Origin: a virus
Lineage: Duplodnaviria; Heunggongvirae; Uroviricota; Caudoviricetes
Virus record (IMG/VR): IMGVR_UViG_3300045007_000064
Span: 124,236-171,128 of that record
Strand: one strand, 5' to 3'
DNA length: 46,893 nt
This document shows, one piece after another, positions 37,378 to 44,359 of this stretch. The notes below the pieces were generated by a model, which searched no databases, had not been told where the DNA came from, and was given only the letters and a program-made list of their open reading frames with translations. Made by a program: the position numbers and the translations under genes. Within the stretch, counting starts at the first letter, position 1, and every line of letters starts with the position of its first letter.

Positions 37378-39117
37378 TTACTGTCCGGGTTCTGCGAGCG
37401 GGAATGGCGGGGCGTCATCCCCAGGAGCAACCGGCTGCTCCGGTTCAGGCATGATGTCGCCCACTGTGGGCTGCATCGGGTCCTGCGGCGGTGCGTCTGA
37501 AGGCTGTGACGTGTCCAGCGGGGCGTTGGGGTCAGCAGGTACCGCACCCGTTCCTCCGTTGAGAATGTCGTTGACCTGTCCCGGAACCGGGGCAACCGAG
37601 GTAGCCTGTCCTGCACCGCGAGCGGCGTCGATGACATCGGGGGCCAGAACACGAAGCAGGGCCTCGGTGAGCTGCGGGTCCAGTCCACCCTTCTCCAGCA
37701 GCATGCGGAGCACAAGCTCCTTGCCGGTGGGAGCATCCTGATCTGCGAAGCCGTGGGCACGACGCCAGGTGTCACCCGAGATTGCCATCTTCTCATATCC
37801 GGAGTCGGCGTCAGCCGCGCGGTCATTGCGGGTCGCAACAGCGCTGGCGTCATACCAGACAGCGATACGGGATACGTCAGCCTGGCTCCATCCGTCGTTG
37901 ATGAGGGTGGGGCGCAGGTACATCGTGGTGAAGGCGTCAGCCAGCAGGAGCAGCATCGGCTCAATGTGGGCCTTGTACAGCGACTCGTCAATCTGGACGG
38001 CGTTGTTGTACTTCACATTTGCCAGACCGGTAACGGTGTCCTTGGGAACATCGAGACCCTGGAGGATACGCTCTAGAACGCGGTCAGCACGCGCAACCAT
38101 GGCGTCATCAAACGGACGGTCGAACGAGATGTGCTTCAGGTCCTTACCCAGCTCGGCAGGGCCGCGGATCAGAAGAGGCACAACGCTGGCGGCGCTGGAC
38201 TCATCCTCGATGGGCGTGGACATCGCCAGGAGAAGTTCTTCCTGGAACTGGTCGGCTACGTCCTCCGGCGTGGGGGCGTCCTCGTCCTGCTCTTCGAATA
38301 GACCGGAATCCGCCTCGGCGGAAGTAGACAAGCCGTCCGGAACGTACAGGATACCGGCATTCAGACGCGAACGGTGCGACCCGCGGAAGGTGCGGTCCAG
38401 AAGCAGAAGCTCCTCGCACAGCGCCAGCAGACCGATCATGTTCGTGTCCGGGTCCTCGCTGAAGCGGGGGTGCGGACGCCAAATGCGTCCCATGAACGCA
38501 TCGGACGGCAGCGGGATCGCACCCTTGGGCAGTGCACCGCCGCCGTTGCCAGGCTTGATCGCGCGGCGCGGGTAGATAGCGTAGTTGCCCTTGGCGTCAA
38601 CCTTCAGCTCGTCTACCGAGCGAATGTCCCAGCTCTCCGGCAGGCCCTGACCGATGCGCTCGGGCACCTGGACCAGGTAGCACTCACCGGCAACGGCGAG
38701 GTTCAGCGCGGCGTCACGGAGAAGTCCTGCCTGTCCGCCGAAGGCGGAGTCCAGACGCTCTAGTGCACGGCGAGCGGCGTCTGCAAGTTCTGCGTCAACC
38801 TTCTCAGACAGCGCCAAAGGTACGGGAGACTCAGCCGGGTCTTCCACGACCGCCACATATAGGCGAATTCGTGAAACAACGCTTGCCACGAGCTGGAAGG
38901 CGTACTTGACCTCGGAAATGGCGTCGTAGTACTCCCACGCCGCCTGCTGGACAGCAACGATCTGCCCGCCCTGCGCCTGACGGAACAGCTCCGCCTCGGT
39001 CTTGTCCTTGAGACTCACGCGCGCAGCAGCAGCGGTCATGCCTCGTACGGAGTTATACGGTACGGGCGCAACCGGCTGCGTGCTCGCTGTCTCGCGGCGG
39101 AAGATGTTGCCTGCCAT
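37378..39117 (-). CDS. portal protein
   Basis: 579 aa from ATG 39117 (TAATG overlap); AWEYYDAISEVKYA, GECYLV, WRPHPRF, ILQGLDVPK patterns of actinophage portals. Confidence 0.88.
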   Translation of the reverse strand: MAGNIFRRETASTQPVAPVPYNSVRGMTAAAARVSLKDKTEAELFRQAQGGQIVAVQQAAWEYYDAISEVKYAFQLVASVVSRIRLYVAVVEDPAESPVPLALSEKVDAELADAARRALERLDSAFGGQAGLLRDAALNLAVAGECYLVQVPERIGQGLPESWDIRSVDELKVDAKGNYAIYPRRAIKPGNGGGALPKGAIPLPSDAFMGRIWRPHPRFSEDPDTNMIGLLALCEELLLLDRTFRGSHRSRLNAGILYVPDGLSTSAEADSGLFEEQDEDAPTPEDVADQFQEELLLAMSTPIEDESSAASVVPLLIRGPAELGKDLKHISFDRPFDDAMVARADRVLERILQGLDVPKDTVTGLANVKYNNAVQIDESLYKAHIEPMLLLLADAFTTMYLRPTLINDGWSQADVSRIAVWYDASAVATRNDRAADADSGYEKMAISGDTWRRAHGFADQDAPTGKELVLRMLLEKGGLDPQLTEALLRVLAPDVIDAARGAGQATSVAPVPGQVNDILNGGTGAVPADPNAPLDTSQPSDAPPQDPMQPTVGDIMPEPEQPVAPGDDAPPFPLAEPGQ

Positions 39118-39392
39118 TATCCTACCTTCTGGTAAATGAGGCCTGTTACAGCCGATCCCGCTAGGGGAAGTCCAGCTACCATCATACCAGTAGGTGAAAC
39201 TACGTACAGAATAGCGAGAGGAATCGCTACCCAGAATGACATACACCACGGGCAGCCGAGTAGATATGCGAGCTTTCCACCAGGCTTGACCTTGGAGTAC
39301 GCCCAGTCACGCGGCCCATCCAGGATTTCGTCCTCGATGATGAGCCGCGTGGCTCGATAAACGGCGAGCAGAAATACGATGAAGCGGATCAT
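39117..39392 (-). CDS. membrane protein (DUF1360-like)
   Basis: LAVYRATRLI.ED.I...CPWCMSFWVA with hydrophobic helices. Confidence 0.7.
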   Translation of the reverse strand: MIRFIVFLLAVYRATRLIIEDEILDGPRDWAYSKVKPGGKLAYLLGCPWCMSFWVAIPLAILYVVSPTGMMVAGLPLAGSAVTGLIYQKVG

Positions 39393-40168
39393 AGCTTCCA
39401 GGGCCAGTTTCCGTGAATCTCGGTCTTCTCCAGGCCCGAGTCGTAGTAGTGATCTAGAAGCGCTCGGACGTAGTTGTCGTGGAGGTTCATCCGGTTCAAA
39501 ACCATGCTCGCCTCGCGGAGCCGGTACTGTAGCGGGTGGCGCTTCAGCGCACGATGCAGCTTCTTCAGCATCTTGGTCTTGCGCGGGGTGGTCGTCACGA
39601 TGACGCGAGGTCGATCACCAGTTCGGACCGCGGTGAGGAGGTTATCCCAGGCGTCGTTTACATCCTTTGACTTTGCACGACGCCACGAAGCAACCTCATC
39701 TGCCCACGCGAAATCAGCACCGACTCCCCGAATAGCGTCCGGTTCCTCCGAGGAAACGCAGAAAGCAACGGAACCGTTAGGCCACTCCAGGAGGCGCAGA
39801 CTGGGCTTGTATGTTGGGGCATCAGGGTTATGCAGTCCGTAGACGCCGAAGATTCCAGATTCTCCCTCCACCAGAACCTCGCGCACATCCGCTGCGGTAC
39901 GCGCAACCAGAAGAAGCCGGGACCCGGGGTTCTCTTCCGCGAACTTGATCGCCTCCTCGGCTCCGGTACGGGTCTTACCCGAACCGCGGCCTGCCGCGTA
40001 AATCCACACACGCCAGAGAGAATCCTGGGGCGGAATCTGGTCAGGGCGGCGCTCGGCCTCCCACTTCTCCCGGCCCTTCAGGCTCTCGATCTGGAGAAGC
40101 TGCTGGTCGCGGTCCTCTCCGGGCGGCATGCTCTTGACGGTTTCTTTCAGTGATCCTTTGTAGAACAT
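39389..40168 (-). CDS. terminase large-subunit ATPase-only paralog A
   Basis: 259 aa from ATG 40168 (GGAAGGA RBS, TGATG overlap); GRGSGKT, FAWADE, TTTP; aligns to TerL N-domain; no nuclease domain. Confidence 0.8.
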   Translation of the reverse strand: MFYKGSLKETVKSMPPGEDRDQQLLQIESLKGREKWEAERRPDQIPPQDSLWRVWIYAAGRGSGKTRTGAEEAIKFAEENPGSRLLLVARTAADVREVLVEGESGIFGVYGLHNPDAPTYKPSLRLLEWPNGSVAFCVSSEEPDAIRGVGADFAWADEVASWRRAKSKDVNDAWDNLLTAVRTGDRPRVIVTTTPRKTKMLKKLHRALKRHPLQYRLREASMVLNRMNLHDNYVRALLDHYYDSGLEKTEIHGNWPWKL

Positions 40169-40758
40169 CAGAACGTCCTTCCGTCTCCTGCTCGGGAGAC
40201 GATTGTGTCGGGGTGTAGCTTTGTTGGCTGCGTAAACAGGTACTTCTCCGCCATGGGGTATTCCTTGGCGATTTCGGCGGCATCGAAAACTTCGTCTGCC
40301 CATACATAGTCGAACATCATTCCACGGGCGGCTCCCCGAAGGAAGGCGTCCTCGGACATGCCCCGCAACGAGCGCTTGCTGCTGCGGTCGCGAATCGATA
40401 CAGCCCGCTCTACTCCATCGATTCTGTCGTAGTCAAAATGTCCAGACCACAACTCCGCGGTGTTCATGAAACGCTTGAAGGACAGGTCCATCTCGTACCC
40501 GCCTCCGCTGAAGATGCACAAAACGTTGGCTAGGTTGAAGAACTTGTTCCACGCCCAATACTCGCCCGCATAGCTCTTACCGCTATTAGGCGGAGCGACA
40601 ATCGTCCAGTACTTCCAATCGGAAGATGCAGGTTCGATCTGGAATGGGTAGGCGTTCAGTTCCCAGCTATAGTTCCACTCGTCATCATCGTAGAAGGCGC
40701 GGCGAGCTGAGCGTTCCGGCTCGGGGAGCGCTTCAATCTGCTGACGGAGAGTCTTCAT
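40168..40758 (-). CDS. divergent terminase ATPase-like paralog B
   Basis: 196 aa; YPFQ, APPNSGKS (Walker A), FDYVWADE (Walker B); N-terminus LRQQIEALPEPE...WNYSW resembles TerL QISLLPPDE...WDWSLW. Confidence 0.65.
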   Translation of the reverse strand: MKTLRQQIEALPEPERSARRAFYDDDEWNYSWELNAYPFQIEPASSDWKYWTIVAPPNSGKSYAGEYWAWNKFFNLANVLCIFSGGGYEMDLSFKRFMNTAELWSGHFDYDRIDGVERAVSIRDRSSKRSLRGMSEDAFLRGAARGMMFDYVWADEVFDAAEIAKEYPMAEKYLFTQPTKLHPDTIVSRAGDGRTF

Positions 40759-40954
40759 TCTCGTCTTCCCGTAGTCGCTTCAACTGATCCAGACTGGACT
40801 GGGGGTTCCGAGGCTTTTCAGCTAGCTTCTTTGTCCAGTACTCGATTTCCTCTCGGAGGAGCGTTCCTGTCAGGGGAATAACCCGCTCACCAGCCTCCAG
40901 AGTGACCTCGAAGGGCGGCCCAATATGCAGCCCTCCCTCTTCTACACTAGGCAT
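40733..40954 (-). CDS. 73-aa hypothetical protein
   Basis: ATG 40954 overlaps the upstream stop; fills the gap in a coupled gene series. Confidence 0.5.
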   Translation of the reverse strand: MPSVEEGGLHIGPPFEVTLEAGERVIPLTGTLLREEIEYWTKKLAEKPRNPQSSLDQLKRLREDENEDSPSAD

Positions 40955-41168
40955 GATCCGTGTCATCTCCTGGGCAGTAGCAAATCCGCGGCATCGGCAG
41001 AGGGTTGTCCTCATCGGTAATAGGGGTAGACATGGCAAGCAGGAGCTGATCCTGAAACTCTTCCTCTGTCGAGACAGGCTCATCCGGATTCTCACGGGCG
41101 CTCTTCGGGATGTGGAGCACACCCGCGTCTGCGATCTGTTGCTCGGTGAACTTGTAGATTCTAAGCAT
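40947..41168 (-). CDS. 73-aa portal-fragment protein (clip-like segment)
   Basis: AGVLHIP...FQDQLLLAMSTPITDE matches portal AGILYVP...FQEELLLAMSTPIEDE; ATG overlaps the upstream stop. Confidence 0.7.
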   Translation of the reverse strand: MLRIYKFTEQQIADAGVLHIPKSARENPDEPVSTEEEFQDQLLLAMSTPITDEDNPLPMPRICYCPGDDTDHA

Positions 41169-41538
41169 CTTCGGGTCCCGGGTCCTTGCTCGATCCCATG
41201 ATCTTGAATGGACGCCAGCTCCGCAGCCGCGATCCGCAGCCACAGGAGGCGTCCTTACGCCAGGCGAGCTTCTTGCCCGAGACGGTTGTCACGTACGAAT
41301 CGATGTGTACGCTGCCCTTGTAGTGCGTGGTGGGGTCAATCTCCTCGGAGAATACGACCTGTGGCCCCGCTACATCGTCCACCGCAACGGTCACTCGGTT
41401 TCCGGATACAACAACCCGGGTGATCGCCAGGTGCGCGGCATCCGGCGTCGGCGGACGGCTCTTCAGCTCTTCCACCGCCACAGGGAAGTCGGCAGCCGTA
41501 ATCACCAGCGTAGCTGGGAATGTGTCTTCGCGAATCAA
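41161..41538 (-). CDS. hypothetical protein with CGCG motif
   Basis: TTG start with AAGGAGAG RBS, 4-nt overlap with the HTH gene. Confidence 0.7.
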   Translation of the reverse strand: MIREDTFPATLVITAADFPVAVEELKSRPPTPDAAHLAITRVVVSGNRVTVAVDDVAGPQVVFSEEIDPTTHYKGSVHIDSYVTTVSGKKLAWRKDASCGCGSRLRSWRPFKIMGSSKDPGPEDA

Positions 41539-42032
41539 CTTACTCTCCTTGCCATTGCGCGGTAGCTGACGTTCGCGGCGTCCGCGAGGTCAGCGATGGT
41601 TACGCGCTCGTCATGGTGCAGTCTAACACAAAGCTCGGTCAATTCCCTATTCGACTTTGCCGAGGCGTGTCCCGGCTTCATCGTGGCGCGGTACTTGCGG
41701 GCGCTGGGAGCCAGCTCCTTGATCCGTGTAGCCTCGGCTGTCGTGAGCGGGCGTCGGGGCTTCTTCGGAGTGCTGGCGGGGGTCTGGAGCGTTGGGATAG
41801 GTGTAGTTGGCAGATCAGTATACGCGGACGCAATGGGAATCGGTGAATTGATCCAGTAACGAATCGTGGATCGTGCCCGAGGCGGGTCAAACGACTCCCC
41901 GATACTCCGGAGTGTCCACCCCGCCTGGTACAGCATCTTCGCTCGCGCGAATAGCTCGTACCCGGTAAGGTTCTGTAGCAGTTCTGCTTCGTAGGAGGGC
42001 AACGACTGCCCTCGCGCGGATCGGCGTGTCAT
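41535..42032 (-). CDS. helix-turn-helix DNA-binding protein (two HTH-like units; small terminase not excluded)
   Basis: GWTLRSIGESF..PRARSTIRYW and VTIADLADAANVSYRAMARR. Confidence 0.65.
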   Translation of the reverse strand: MTRRSARGQSLPSYEAELLQNLTGYELFARAKMLYQAGWTLRSIGESFDPPRARSTIRYWINSPIPIASAYTDLPTTPIPTLQTPASTPKKPRRPLTTAEATRIKELAPSARKYRATMKPGHASAKSNRELTELCVRLHHDERVTIADLADAANVSYRAMARRVS

Positions 42033-44359
42033 CGCTTCTTCATTCCTCCAATACGGAATCCTCCGAATCCCGTGGCACGGGGTCCGGTTCGCTGGGTGCG
42101 CTGGCGGAGGGCATTGTTGTTGCCAAGGTTGATGGTTCGGTTAGCCATGCCCTTCGCACGAATGGGGCCGCTCCAGAATCCCTTAGGCGGGGCAATCAGG
42201 AGGGCGGTGAGTGCGTGAACGAGCGCGTCCACGCGGTCAGGGGACTTGCGAGTGACCTCAGGCTCCCAGGTCACCATCTGCTCCTCCAGGTCAACGTGCC
42301 GTCCAACGTGGACAACACGACCCTGCTGATACGCGAGCACGACCGGCTCGGCGCGGAGCTTCTTTCCGACCTTCGAGTGGACCTCGTAGACCGGAATGTT
42401 CGGGTCGATCTGGTGGATGGCGTTCTTCACCATCGCTCCACCCTGGTTTGTCTCCGCTACAATCGGGGCACCCCACTTGTAGTGCATGTCCACAACCTTC
42501 TGCGTCCACACCTGGGGCGAACCCTGCACCGATGCGTCTTCCAGAACCCACGCTCGGCGCTTGTAGAGGTCGGAATCGGCGGTGGCGGAGACCACAACGA
42601 TTCCACACTCGTCACCAGGCTCGTCCGCGACCGTGGGGTCCACACCGATGACGCGCAGAGGCGTGTAAGGCGGCAGCTCCAAGTTGTGCGGGATCATATT
42701 GTCGTCCCACAGCGCGCCCTCGACCGCCTCCAGCATCTCACCGTTCAGCTCCTGCATAGCCAGACGGGTACCGCCGTACACTCCGGTGATCGCGTCCAGG
42801 TACGCGCCCGCCAGGTTACCGGCATTGTCGTACGTAGAACCGCGAGTGACCCAGATTCGACCGGCACCTTCGACATCCTTGCGCCGATCCGGGTTCTTCT
42901 TGTGCTCCGCGATCAGGTCGAACAACACCTTGACGCGCTTAGGGGTGGTGGTGGCGAGAATCTGGGGGTTGTTTCCCAGACGAGTCGCGATACGGAGGTT
43001 CTCCCACGCAGAAAGCTCGCCTTCCTTGGTCGGCTGACGCCACGCGGCTACCTCGTCGCCCCAGGCGTAGTGCGCCTGCACACCACGAAGCGAGTCAGGC
43101 TCGTCTGCGGAGGTGCAGAAGGCCCAGGAGCCATTGGGCCAGATCAGACGACGGATGGACGGGCGGTATTCGGGGCGCTCCGAGGGTGGGGAGACGTTGA
43201 TGATACCGGAATTGTGGGTCTTGACGTACGTATTGTGGATCAAGAACGTGTTATCGGGCGAATCAACCGCGATGCAGCGTACGGGGACACTCTCAACCGG
43301 TGTAATCGACTGAATCGCGCGCAGAGCGCCCTTCTTGGAGTAGTGCGTGACTGTCCAGGAGTCGATTCGGCCCTCACGCTCGACAACTCGGGTCCATTCT
43401 CCGGTAGTGTACCCAAGTGAGGACGCTAGACGGCGGATATTCGCCCGAATCTGGGTCGTATTGGTGCCAGGAATCTCCGATTCCTCCCCATACGCCTGTC
43501 GAGCGTCAACGAGGCCCTTCAACACGGCCTCGCGGACCTTCGTGGGTGCCCAGAAGTAGTCCTCGGGGATTCGGCGGGTCTCCGCGTTGTGCTCCGAGAA
43601 TTCAGAGCGCAGCGGGCGCTTCCCGAGGAGGTATCCGACGTTGTAGGGGGTGTATCGGAGCTGGATATCCTCTTCACCCTGGAGTTCGATAGGCTCGATG
43701 TAGTATCGGCGGTCCAAATCCTTCATGATTTCTTCTGTCGTCATCACGAAGGTCTTCTTGGACAGGCGACCCGTCCCCCAGTGCCCGTCACGGCGGCGAA
43801 CCGCCCACTTGTGGTTCGCGTCTGCGATGATCGGGGTATCTTCACCCGCGACCTTGACAGCGTAGCAGGGGCGGTTGTAGAGTACAGGGAAAGCTTCGGT
43901 GACCTTAGCGGGCTTGCCGTCTCCGCCGACAACGAGGTCACCCTTCTTCAGCTTGCCGATGGGGGTGAATCCTGTAGGACTAATAGGGCTGGCTACGGGG
44001 GTGTCGAGCGCCAGGGCCTCACCTTCAACGATAACCTCTCGCACGTCAGCCGCGGTACGGGCAACGAGGAGGAATCGCAAGGGTCCCTGGCTAGTCTCTC
44101 GCGCCTTCTCGCGAATCCACTCAGCCGCCATGCGTGTCTTACCGAAACCACGACCGGCGAGTGCGAGGCCTACGTCCCAGGAGTCGTCTCGGGGCGGTAC
44201 CTGCGCAGGGCGGCTCCAAAGAGACCAGTCCCAACGGAGCTGTTCTGGGTCGAACCCCGCGAGTGCTTCTTCCGCCTCGTCGGGCGGGAGCAAGGAGATT
44301 TGCTCCATGATCGACATCGACGCGGGGTCGAGGAGGGAAGTGTTCGGAAACTCAGACAT
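42029..44359 (-). CDS. terL: terminase large subunit with intein (507 aa after splicing)
   Basis: GRGFGKT, YAWGDE, TTTP; nuclease domain VIGVDPT, DECGIVV, AETNQGG, PDRVDAL. Confidence 0.95.
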   Translation of the reverse strand: MSEFPNTSLLDPASMSIMEQISLLPPDEAEEALAGFDPEQLRWDWSLWSRPAQVPPRDDSWDVGLALAGRGFGKTRMAAEWIREKARETSQGPLRFLLVARTAADVREVIVEGEALALDTPVASPISPTGFTPIGKLKKGDLVVGGDGKPAKVTEAFPVLYNRPCYAVKVAGEDTPIIADANHKWAVRRRDGHWGTGRLSKKTFVMTTEEIMKDLDRRYYIEPIELQGEEDIQLRYTPYNVGYLLGKRPLRSEFSEHNAETRRIPEDYFWAPTKVREAVLKGLVDARQAYGEESEIPGTNTTQIRANIRRLASSLGYTTGEWTRVVEREGRIDSWTVTHYSKKGALRAIQSITPVESVPVRCIAVDSPDNTFLIHNTYVKTHNSGIINVSPPSERPEYRPSIRRLIWPNGSWAFCTSADEPDSLRGVQAHYAWGDEVAAWRQPTKEGELSAWENLRIATRLGNNPQILATTTPKRVKVLFDLIAEHKKNPDRRKDVEGAGRIWVTRGSTYDNAGNLAGAYLDAITGVYGGTRLAMQELNGEMLEAVEGALWDDNMIPHNLELPPYTPLRVIGVDPTVADEPGDECGIVVVSATADSDLYKRRAWVLEDASVQGSPQVWTQKVVDMHYKWGAPIVAETNQGGAMVKNAIHQIDPNIPVYEVHSKVGKKLRAEPVVLAYQQGRVVHVGRHVDLEEQMVTWEPEVTRKSPDRVDALVHALTALLIAPPKGFWSGPIRAKGMANRTINLGNNNALRQRTQRTGPRATGFGGFRIGGMKKR
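43211..44017 (-). mobile_element. class 3 intein (269 aa) with degenerate LAGLIDADG endonuclease
   Basis: Starts Ala (ALALDTP), ends THN before Ser; W (NHKW), C (VRCIAV), T (KTHN) triplet; joined exteins IVEGE-SGII match paralog VLVEGESGIF. Confidence 0.9.

Follow-up and report, generated by a model that had tools for sequence, protein, structure and literature searches.

A free-standing portal clip domain encoded in the packaging operon of a Microbacterium phage, and its proposed role as a clip mimic

The portal protein of tailed phages carries a clip, which lies exposed on the outer side of the capsid and serves as the docking site of the large terminase and then of the neck (10.1101/2023.02.24.529869; PMC4493910). 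In published structures, the clip consists of strands and one helix that join two stem helices and are followed by the tunnel loop and a long wing helix (PMC4493910 for T4; PMC12847820 for SPbeta YonE), and in the ring it forms an inter-subunit, three-stranded sheet (PMC4493910). Two lines of work have shown what can bind to it. A free 24-residue peptide from the T4 clip (gp20 288-311) binds gp17 and inhibits packaging (PMC4493910). On the side of the host, the N-domain of SpbK binds the SPbeta portal at its clip helix, with activation needing clustering on the dodecamer and an escape mutation mapping to the helix, and EcAvs4 contacts the stem, clip, and wing of a monomeric portal (PMC12847820). 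The clip is thus a meeting point on the portal for the packaging motor, for the neck proteins, and for bacterial immune sensors of at least two kinds. In the literature that we searched, no description of a natural, selected, and free-standing clip domain was found.

Here, we describe a small phage gene that very probably encodes such a domain on its own. The window (the whole stretch of DNA that was analyzed, 46,893 nucleotides) is the terminal part of its source, a viral metagenome record of 171 kb, and the carrier of the gene is a soil Microbacterium phage, akin to the ~190-kb Microbacterium phages A3Wally, Zooman, Big4, Cece, and Pumpernickel. The packaging genes, all on the minus strand, follow one another in the order TerL, HTH, 125-aa gene, the ORF under study (hereafter the mini-protein), a second 73-aa ORF, the terminase paralogs B and A, DUF1360, and portal (Table 1). 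No promoter-like or terminator-like signal above chance was seen in this packaging operon.

Table 1. Positions in the window of the packaging genes, the mini-protein with its parts, and the portal clip region.
Feature	Position	Strand	Remarks
Large terminase TerL, 776 aa, with intein-like insert	42029..44359	(-)	Pfam Terminase_6N and Terminase_6C
HTH protein	41535-42032	(-)	
125-aa gene, directly upstream of the mini-protein ORF	41161..41538	(-)	Marks the 5' edge of the variable slot
Stand-alone clip-domain gene ('mini-portal'), 73 aa	40947..41168	(-)	Portal homology; orthologs under purifying selection
Mini-protein predicted strand 1, AGVLHIP, residues 15-21	41106..41126	(-)	Aligns to portal AGILYVP (model strand 253-260)
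Mini-protein clip helix motif FQDQLLLAMSTPITDE, residues 38-53	41010..41057	(-)	13/16 identical to portal; helix predicted in both models
Mini-protein predicted strand 2, RICYCPG, residues 61-67, then acidic tail with His	40968..40988	(-)	Aligns to portal VVPLLIRG, 312-319
Second 73-aa ORF, directly downstream of the mini-protein ORF	40733..40954	(-)	Mosaic
TerL ATPase-like paralog B, 196 aa	40168..40758	(-)	Weak Pfam Terminase_6N; Walker A/B-like motifs; 3' edge of the slot
TerL ATPase-only paralog A, 259 aa from ATG at 40168	39389..40168	(-)	Pfam Terminase_6N 7e-15; PHROG_2 3e-17
DUF1360 membrane protein	39117-39392	(-)	
Portal gene, 579 aa from the likely ATG	37378..39117	(-)	Weak Pfam Phage_portal; AlphaFold2 model
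Portal clip region, residues 244-320	38158..38388	(-)	hhalign range and model topology; motif at 38200-38247

The ATG at 41168 is the likely start codon, giving 73 aa, because the orthologs are called from the same Met and because it overlaps the stop codon of the upstream gene by 8 nt; the alternative GTG at 41243 (98 aa) would extend the overlap with the upstream gene to 83 nt. At the other end, the stop codon overlaps the ATG of the next gene, again by 8 nt, and the same arrangement is found in A3Wally. A search for stand-alone orthologs returned intact ones, 62-73% identical, in A3Wally (gp76), in a second cultured phage, and on the metagenome contigs L003, L004, L005, L092, and L097, all of them occupying the same place after the 125-aa gene. 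The preliminary description of this DNA considered the ORF easy to miss in annotation, which is not borne out: A3Wally gp76 (QWY83926.1, 67 aa) has been annotated, albeit as a 'hypothetical protein', and metagenome gene callers call the orthologs as well.

Pairwise comparison of five orthologs gave dN/dS values of 0.08-0.5 at a near-saturated dS of ~1-2.4, similar to those of the 125-aa core gene (0.06-0.24), which occurs in both the close and the distant clade of relatives. The sequence of the mini-protein is thus kept while its DNA diverges, and the gene is therefore under selection, which had been proposed, with capture from a divergent relative as the alternative, from the codons of a single motif. 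Functional annotation by database was of little help. No family in Pfam, PHROGs, or PADLOC matched the mini-protein (PADLOC is not expected to detect such a protein), the ESM Atlas held no usable look-alikes, and a profile of the mini-protein family run against the whole library, a search in which portals miss E<=0.001 at that database size, returned its own cluster and four multi-stretch, probably spurious matches.

What the mini-protein resembles is the portal of its own genome. The counts that had been given for the 16-residue helix motif are exact: 13 of 16 residues are identical between the copies in the mini-protein and the portal at the positions in Table 1, 9 of the 12 identical residues other than Met are encoded by different synonymous codons, and the preceding AGVLHIP also aligns with AGILYVP of the portal. 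At the nucleotide level, the two motifs share 33 of 48 positions. Recent gene conversion with the portal was considered as the source of the 13/16 match and is ruled out by the synonymous-site differences.

The likeness extends well beyond the motif. Pairwise BLASTP of the mini-protein with the window portal gave E=6e-8, and the Smith-Waterman score of 88 lies far above that of 2000 shuffled sequences (32.7 +/- 5.0, maximum 61; z ~11). By tblastn, residues 3-72 align to the portal genes of Zooman, Big4, Pumpernickel, Cece, and DSL-LC01, and profile-profile comparison with hhalign (a mini-family profile vs a profile of 63 portals) aligns residues 5-66 with portal residues 244-320 at 96% probability (E=4e-9). 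Homology to a bona fide portal clip is therefore detectable by BLASTP, hhalign, tblastn, and the shuffle control alike, and the portal is the sole other site in the genome that matches the mini-protein. The segment copy noted in the preliminary description is a real clip match, but its extent had been drawn too narrowly, since nearly the whole ORF corresponds to the whole clip domain. We hold it very likely, on this and the selection data, that the 73-aa ORF is a real, clip-derived gene.

The portal itself deserves some attention from the annotator. Its start is ambiguous (37378-39249 (-)), with possible lengths of 623, 579, or 553 aa; the proteins of cultured relatives are annotated at 569-578 aa. 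It scores 18.4 bits against Pfam Phage_portal, under the gathering threshold of 39.1, despite the clear portal fold of its model. In the protein collection, 1893 homologues were found, mostly without a Pfam label, and these ~1900 proteins therefore make up a large portal lineage that Pfam covers poorly. A portal-family profile found no match among PDB sequences, and the fold was identified instead by structure search: the AlphaFold2 model (63-sequence alignment, mean pLDDT 68, with 50-70 in the clip region) resembles solved portal structures, the HK97 portal being the best match (E=1.5e-8).

In this model, a helix (226-249) leads into a strand (253-260, AGILYVP), an acidic loop, a helix (284-300) that holds the shared motif, and a second strand (312-319), after which come a helix (336-354), a disordered loop (364-373), and a 30-residue helix (378-407). 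Residues 244-320 are thereby placed, at a pLDDT of 50-70, between two stem helices, in agreement with the published layout of the clip, and the assignment of the segment to the clip, previously made by analogy, is upheld. Because the two layouts agree, the mini-protein can be equated with the complete clip domain, preceded by the final turn of the first stem helix. Modest model confidence is usual for a part of the portal that forms an inter-subunit sheet in the ring. The clip helix is nearly invariant across portals of 57-87% identity. As a side observation, the portal loop between the first clip strand and the helix (38248-38330, residues ~263-290) is long, strongly acidic, and variable among portals; in the mini-protein, ~15 residues of it are left.

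The genes around the mini-protein fall into a conserved frame and a variable slot. In distant relatives (portals 57-64% identical), the module consists of TerL without an intein, HTH, the 125-aa gene, DUF1360, and portal; neither terminase paralogs nor a second clip motif were found in that clade. In the close clade, this ancestral module has gained extra genes, the terminase-like paralogs, which have been inserted after the 125-aa gene and ahead of DUF1360. Distant-clade TerL is ~470 aa long, insert-free, and aligns across the gap. The insert in the window TerL comprises ~270 residues within the ATPase domain, has Ala at its start and His-Asn at its end before a Ser, and is intein-like. The 125-aa protein, for which no Pfam or PHROG family was matched, is a core gene product of the packaging module in both clades (41-86% identical), with an invariant C-terminal C-G-C-G-S-R-L-R motif and a K-D-P-G-P tail.

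Paralog A is 40-47% identical to the ATPase domain of TerL. Paralog B is present in all close-clade loci and in none of the distant clade, and strict co-occurrence of the mini-protein with paralog B was rejected as a rule, paralog B also being found at loci that lack the mini-protein. Between the 125-aa gene and DUF1360, the terminase ATPase-like paralogs vary in number, with one in Pumpernickel, L008, and L092 and as many as three in A3Wally and L097. Among phages with TerL proteins that are 78-85% identical, paralog B shows an identity of only 30-56% and is therefore fast-evolving. Its homologues A3Wally gp79, Zooman gp64, and Cece gp63 carry the GenBank label 'terminase large subunit, nuclease domain' (at L001 3552-4184, L002 4130-4714, and L006 3237-3815). 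The window copy instead matches the ATPase family Terminase_6N weakly and has Walker A/B-like motifs; these look like ATPase-domain paralogs rather than nuclease domains or halves of a split gene.

Directly after the mini-protein lies the second ORF of 73 aa. Its N-terminus is like A3Wally gp77 and the neighbors in L003, L005, and L097, and its C-terminal half is like the middle of Zooman gp63, the later part of which bears the clip-helix motif; this mosaic make-up points to recombination within the slot. The ORF was also considered as a second clip copy and is ruled out as such (hhalign vs the portal, 0.2%).

Between the 125-aa gene and paralog B, 15 of 18 close-clade loci have a clip-like ORF, which takes at least five different architectures, and three loci have none. 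Type A (strand, helix, strand with Cys-x-Cys, and acidic His tail) includes the window, A3Wally, the second cultured phage, L003, L004, L005, L092, and L097. Type B (L095/L096, Cece gp62, and L008) has an N-terminal extension, a GGVLW[IV]P strand, a longer loop, and the helix, followed by a CC-containing strand in L095/L096 but by none in Cece gp62 and L008. L009 is a short A/B intermediate. The motif alone links three further designs to the family, namely Zooman gp63 (105 aa, with the helix motif near its C-terminus), L010 (helix first, strand-like segment last), and L098 (a degenerate helix only), while Pumpernickel, L090/91, and L093/94 have no ORF in the slot. A profile of type B plus L009 matches the portal clip at 93% (E=3e-7) and type A at 94% (E=2e-7).

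Most variants share the helix pattern F-x-x-x-L-[LIM]-x-x-M-[ST]-x-P-I, and most also share the first strand; the exceptions to the helix pattern are L008, with L for F, and the degenerate form of L098. In the portal tree, the window groups with Zooman, which has a different design in its slot, and with L092, which has type A (support 95/99). Slot content is thus at odds with the portal tree and is exchanged or remodelled among near kin. The mini-protein is, then, a member of a fast-turning-over, clip-derived family that resides in one fixed slot.

Such a distribution, accessory and with rapid turnover among close relatives, is what one would look for in a counter-defense decoy, and both traits are present here. 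A free clip could occupy a host sensor that recognizes the portal clip and leave it unclustered and inactive, since the free clip would not form a 12-fold ring; the ATPase-only terminase paralogs could act likewise on terminase sensors. The patchy presence, the at least five architectures, and a slot that does not follow the portal tree are all like counter-defense loci, the helix is the most portal-like element to be kept, and copies of both packaging proteins known to be sensed, terminase and portal, adjoin one another. The clip helix is moreover a documented sensor target (SpbK, EcAvs4; PMC12847820). We nevertheless judge an immune decoy to be unlikely. No published decoy of this kind was found in our literature search and no defense-related family was matched in PADLOC, the gene belongs to the late packaging operon and gives no hint of being expressed early or strongly, and with Avs-type sensors binding alone may be enough to activate. 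To our knowledge, no portal-clip sensor has been described in Microbacterium. A broader form of the same idea, in which the entire slot would be a 'decoy island' of soluble, non-assembling baits that copy the terminase ATPase domain and the portal clip helix and soak up immune sensors, is doubtful also; such baits would be exchanged and remodelled among related phages as hosts change.

The individual parts of the mini-protein bear on a further possibility, that of an assembly accessory. Both strand segments of the clip are retained in type A, the G-x-L-[HWY]-[IV]-P pattern of strand 1 also in type B, and the one element common to most variants is the clip helix. The low-confidence AlphaFold2 model of the mini-protein alone (7 family sequences, mean pLDDT 59) has predicted strands at 19-20 and 62-63 and a predicted helix at 35-47, collinear with the clip. 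C63, C65, and H72 are invariant among type A proteins, and the Cys pair recurs in L009 and L095/L096 and is absent from portals. From the sequences, this family-specific Cys pair and His suggest metal-mediated or redox-mediated pairing. One may imagine a protein that pairs its strands with portal subunits or with itself, much as the clip strands of adjacent subunits pair in the ring, and so assists portal folding or ring assembly, caps the clip before packaging, or becomes a minor virion component. The retained strands, the low confidence of the solo model (as expected of a piece that needs a partner), and the Cys pair and His, which could mediate a metal-linked pairing, fit such a role. Against such a role, strand 2 is missing in Cece gp62 and L008, L098 retains nothing but the helix, and three relatives with near-identical portals do without the mini-protein altogether. 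The clip is also a small share of the subunit interface, so that a free clip should compete poorly for it, and we consider an assembly accessory distinctly improbable.

The gene may have arisen in more than one way. The mini-protein is about equally distant (30-38%) from the portal clips of the close and the distant clade, and it may stem from an old duplication within the lineage or, just as well, from capture. The order 125-aa gene, clip piece, terminase pieces, DUF1360, and portal would be the outcome expected if the TerL...portal block had been duplicated in tandem and parts of it had then been deleted. The same gene order raises the question of whether the ORF is simply a decaying relic, that is, a functionless but transcribed remnant of a duplicated or captured TerL-portal module, the more so as the gene has been lost in some lineages. 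A relic would not be expected to keep an intact frame and dN/dS values of 0.08-0.5 over five orthologs at saturated dS, to gain new family-specific invariant residues (CxC and His), to retain the helix in independent architectures, or to conserve its start/stop coupling. Because of the selection data, we place a relic last, behind the terminase, decoy, and assembly readings, and regard it as very unlikely.

The reading that we prefer, at a rough probability of 0.65, is that the mini-protein is some kind of clip mimic or competitor. A free and selected clip domain in which the helix is the best-kept part is most simply understood as a soluble mimic that competes for a clip-binding factor, and the helix is indeed 13/16 identical despite saturated synonymous sites and is what variants of other architecture mainly keep. 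As proposed, the mini-protein would present the clip helix as a soluble version of the portal docking surface and would compete with the portal ring for the factor that binds this helix. The residues common to all variants are mostly hydrophobic (F, L, M, P, and I) and could belong to the fold core rather than to an interface.

As to the partner, a terminase-family ATPase, either TerL itself or the adjacent ATPase-only paralogs, is our tentative first choice, although we would put it at somewhat less than even odds. It is ranked first because the gene lies in the packaging operon, is directly coupled to terminase paralogs, and has the T4 precedent. By holding or titrating such ATPases, the mini-protein may tune or block motor docking, be it in infections by its own phage or at the expense of a co-infecting relative. 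Competing with the motor of its own phage would be costly. Prediction of a complex between the mini-protein and paralog B reached a best score of 0.15 (mark, 0.32), which speaks neither for nor against binding. A fixed cofactor of packaging is harder to reconcile with the locus: TerL is 78-85% and the portal 74-87% identical among these phages, yet the mini-protein is dispensable, swapped, and very variable outside the helix. This would be odd for a fixed packaging cofactor, and a gene engaged in an arms race fits better.

In either case, the mini-protein is a known domain in a new and natural form that stands alone, for which mimicry is the mechanism that we propose. Should it bind terminase, it would be a built-in regulator of, or weapon on, the packaging motor and a ready probe of the poorly resolved portal-terminase interface. 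Should it bind a host sensor, it would represent a new class of counter-defense protein, a decoy made from a fragment of a conserved viral pattern. The hypothesis can be tested directly, since the cultured phage A3Wally, which is grown on Microbacterium foliorum, has an ortholog, and relatives without the gene offer natural controls.

It remains to compare the mini-protein with the systems to which it is closest. A3Wally gp76 and the metagenomic P0006-P0008 are true orthologs, which are identically placed, overlap their neighbors in the same way, carry no functional annotation, and do not differ from it in kind. Portal clip domains (T4 gp20 279-358; SPbeta YonE ~270-325; those of the HK97-type, PF04860) have, over a similar ~70-80 residues, the strand-helix-strand order that is tentatively predicted for the mini-protein; unlike these, the mini-protein has a shortened loop, a strand 2 that has been rewritten with a Cys pair, and an acidic, His-containing tail. 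Whole portal proteins possess wing, stem, clip, and crown in ~350-600 residues and assemble into a dodecameric channel. The mini-protein lacks wing, stem, and crown, so that no portal channel is possible, and it is not a portal protein, because it has 73 aa, aligns only to portal 244-320, and has no Pfam match. The T4 peptide gp20 288-311 is likewise a free piece of clip off the portal ring and sets the precedent for terminase binding and competition with the portal; it is, however, a laboratory peptide of an unrelated portal, whereas the mini-protein is a natural gene under selection with putative terminase binding. Finally, SpbK on SPbeta YonE and EcAvs4 on PhiV-1 gp8 recognize the same clip helix (PMC12847820), which provides the rationale for a decoy, but both of these are host sensors, whereas the mini-protein is a putative mimic encoded by the phage.
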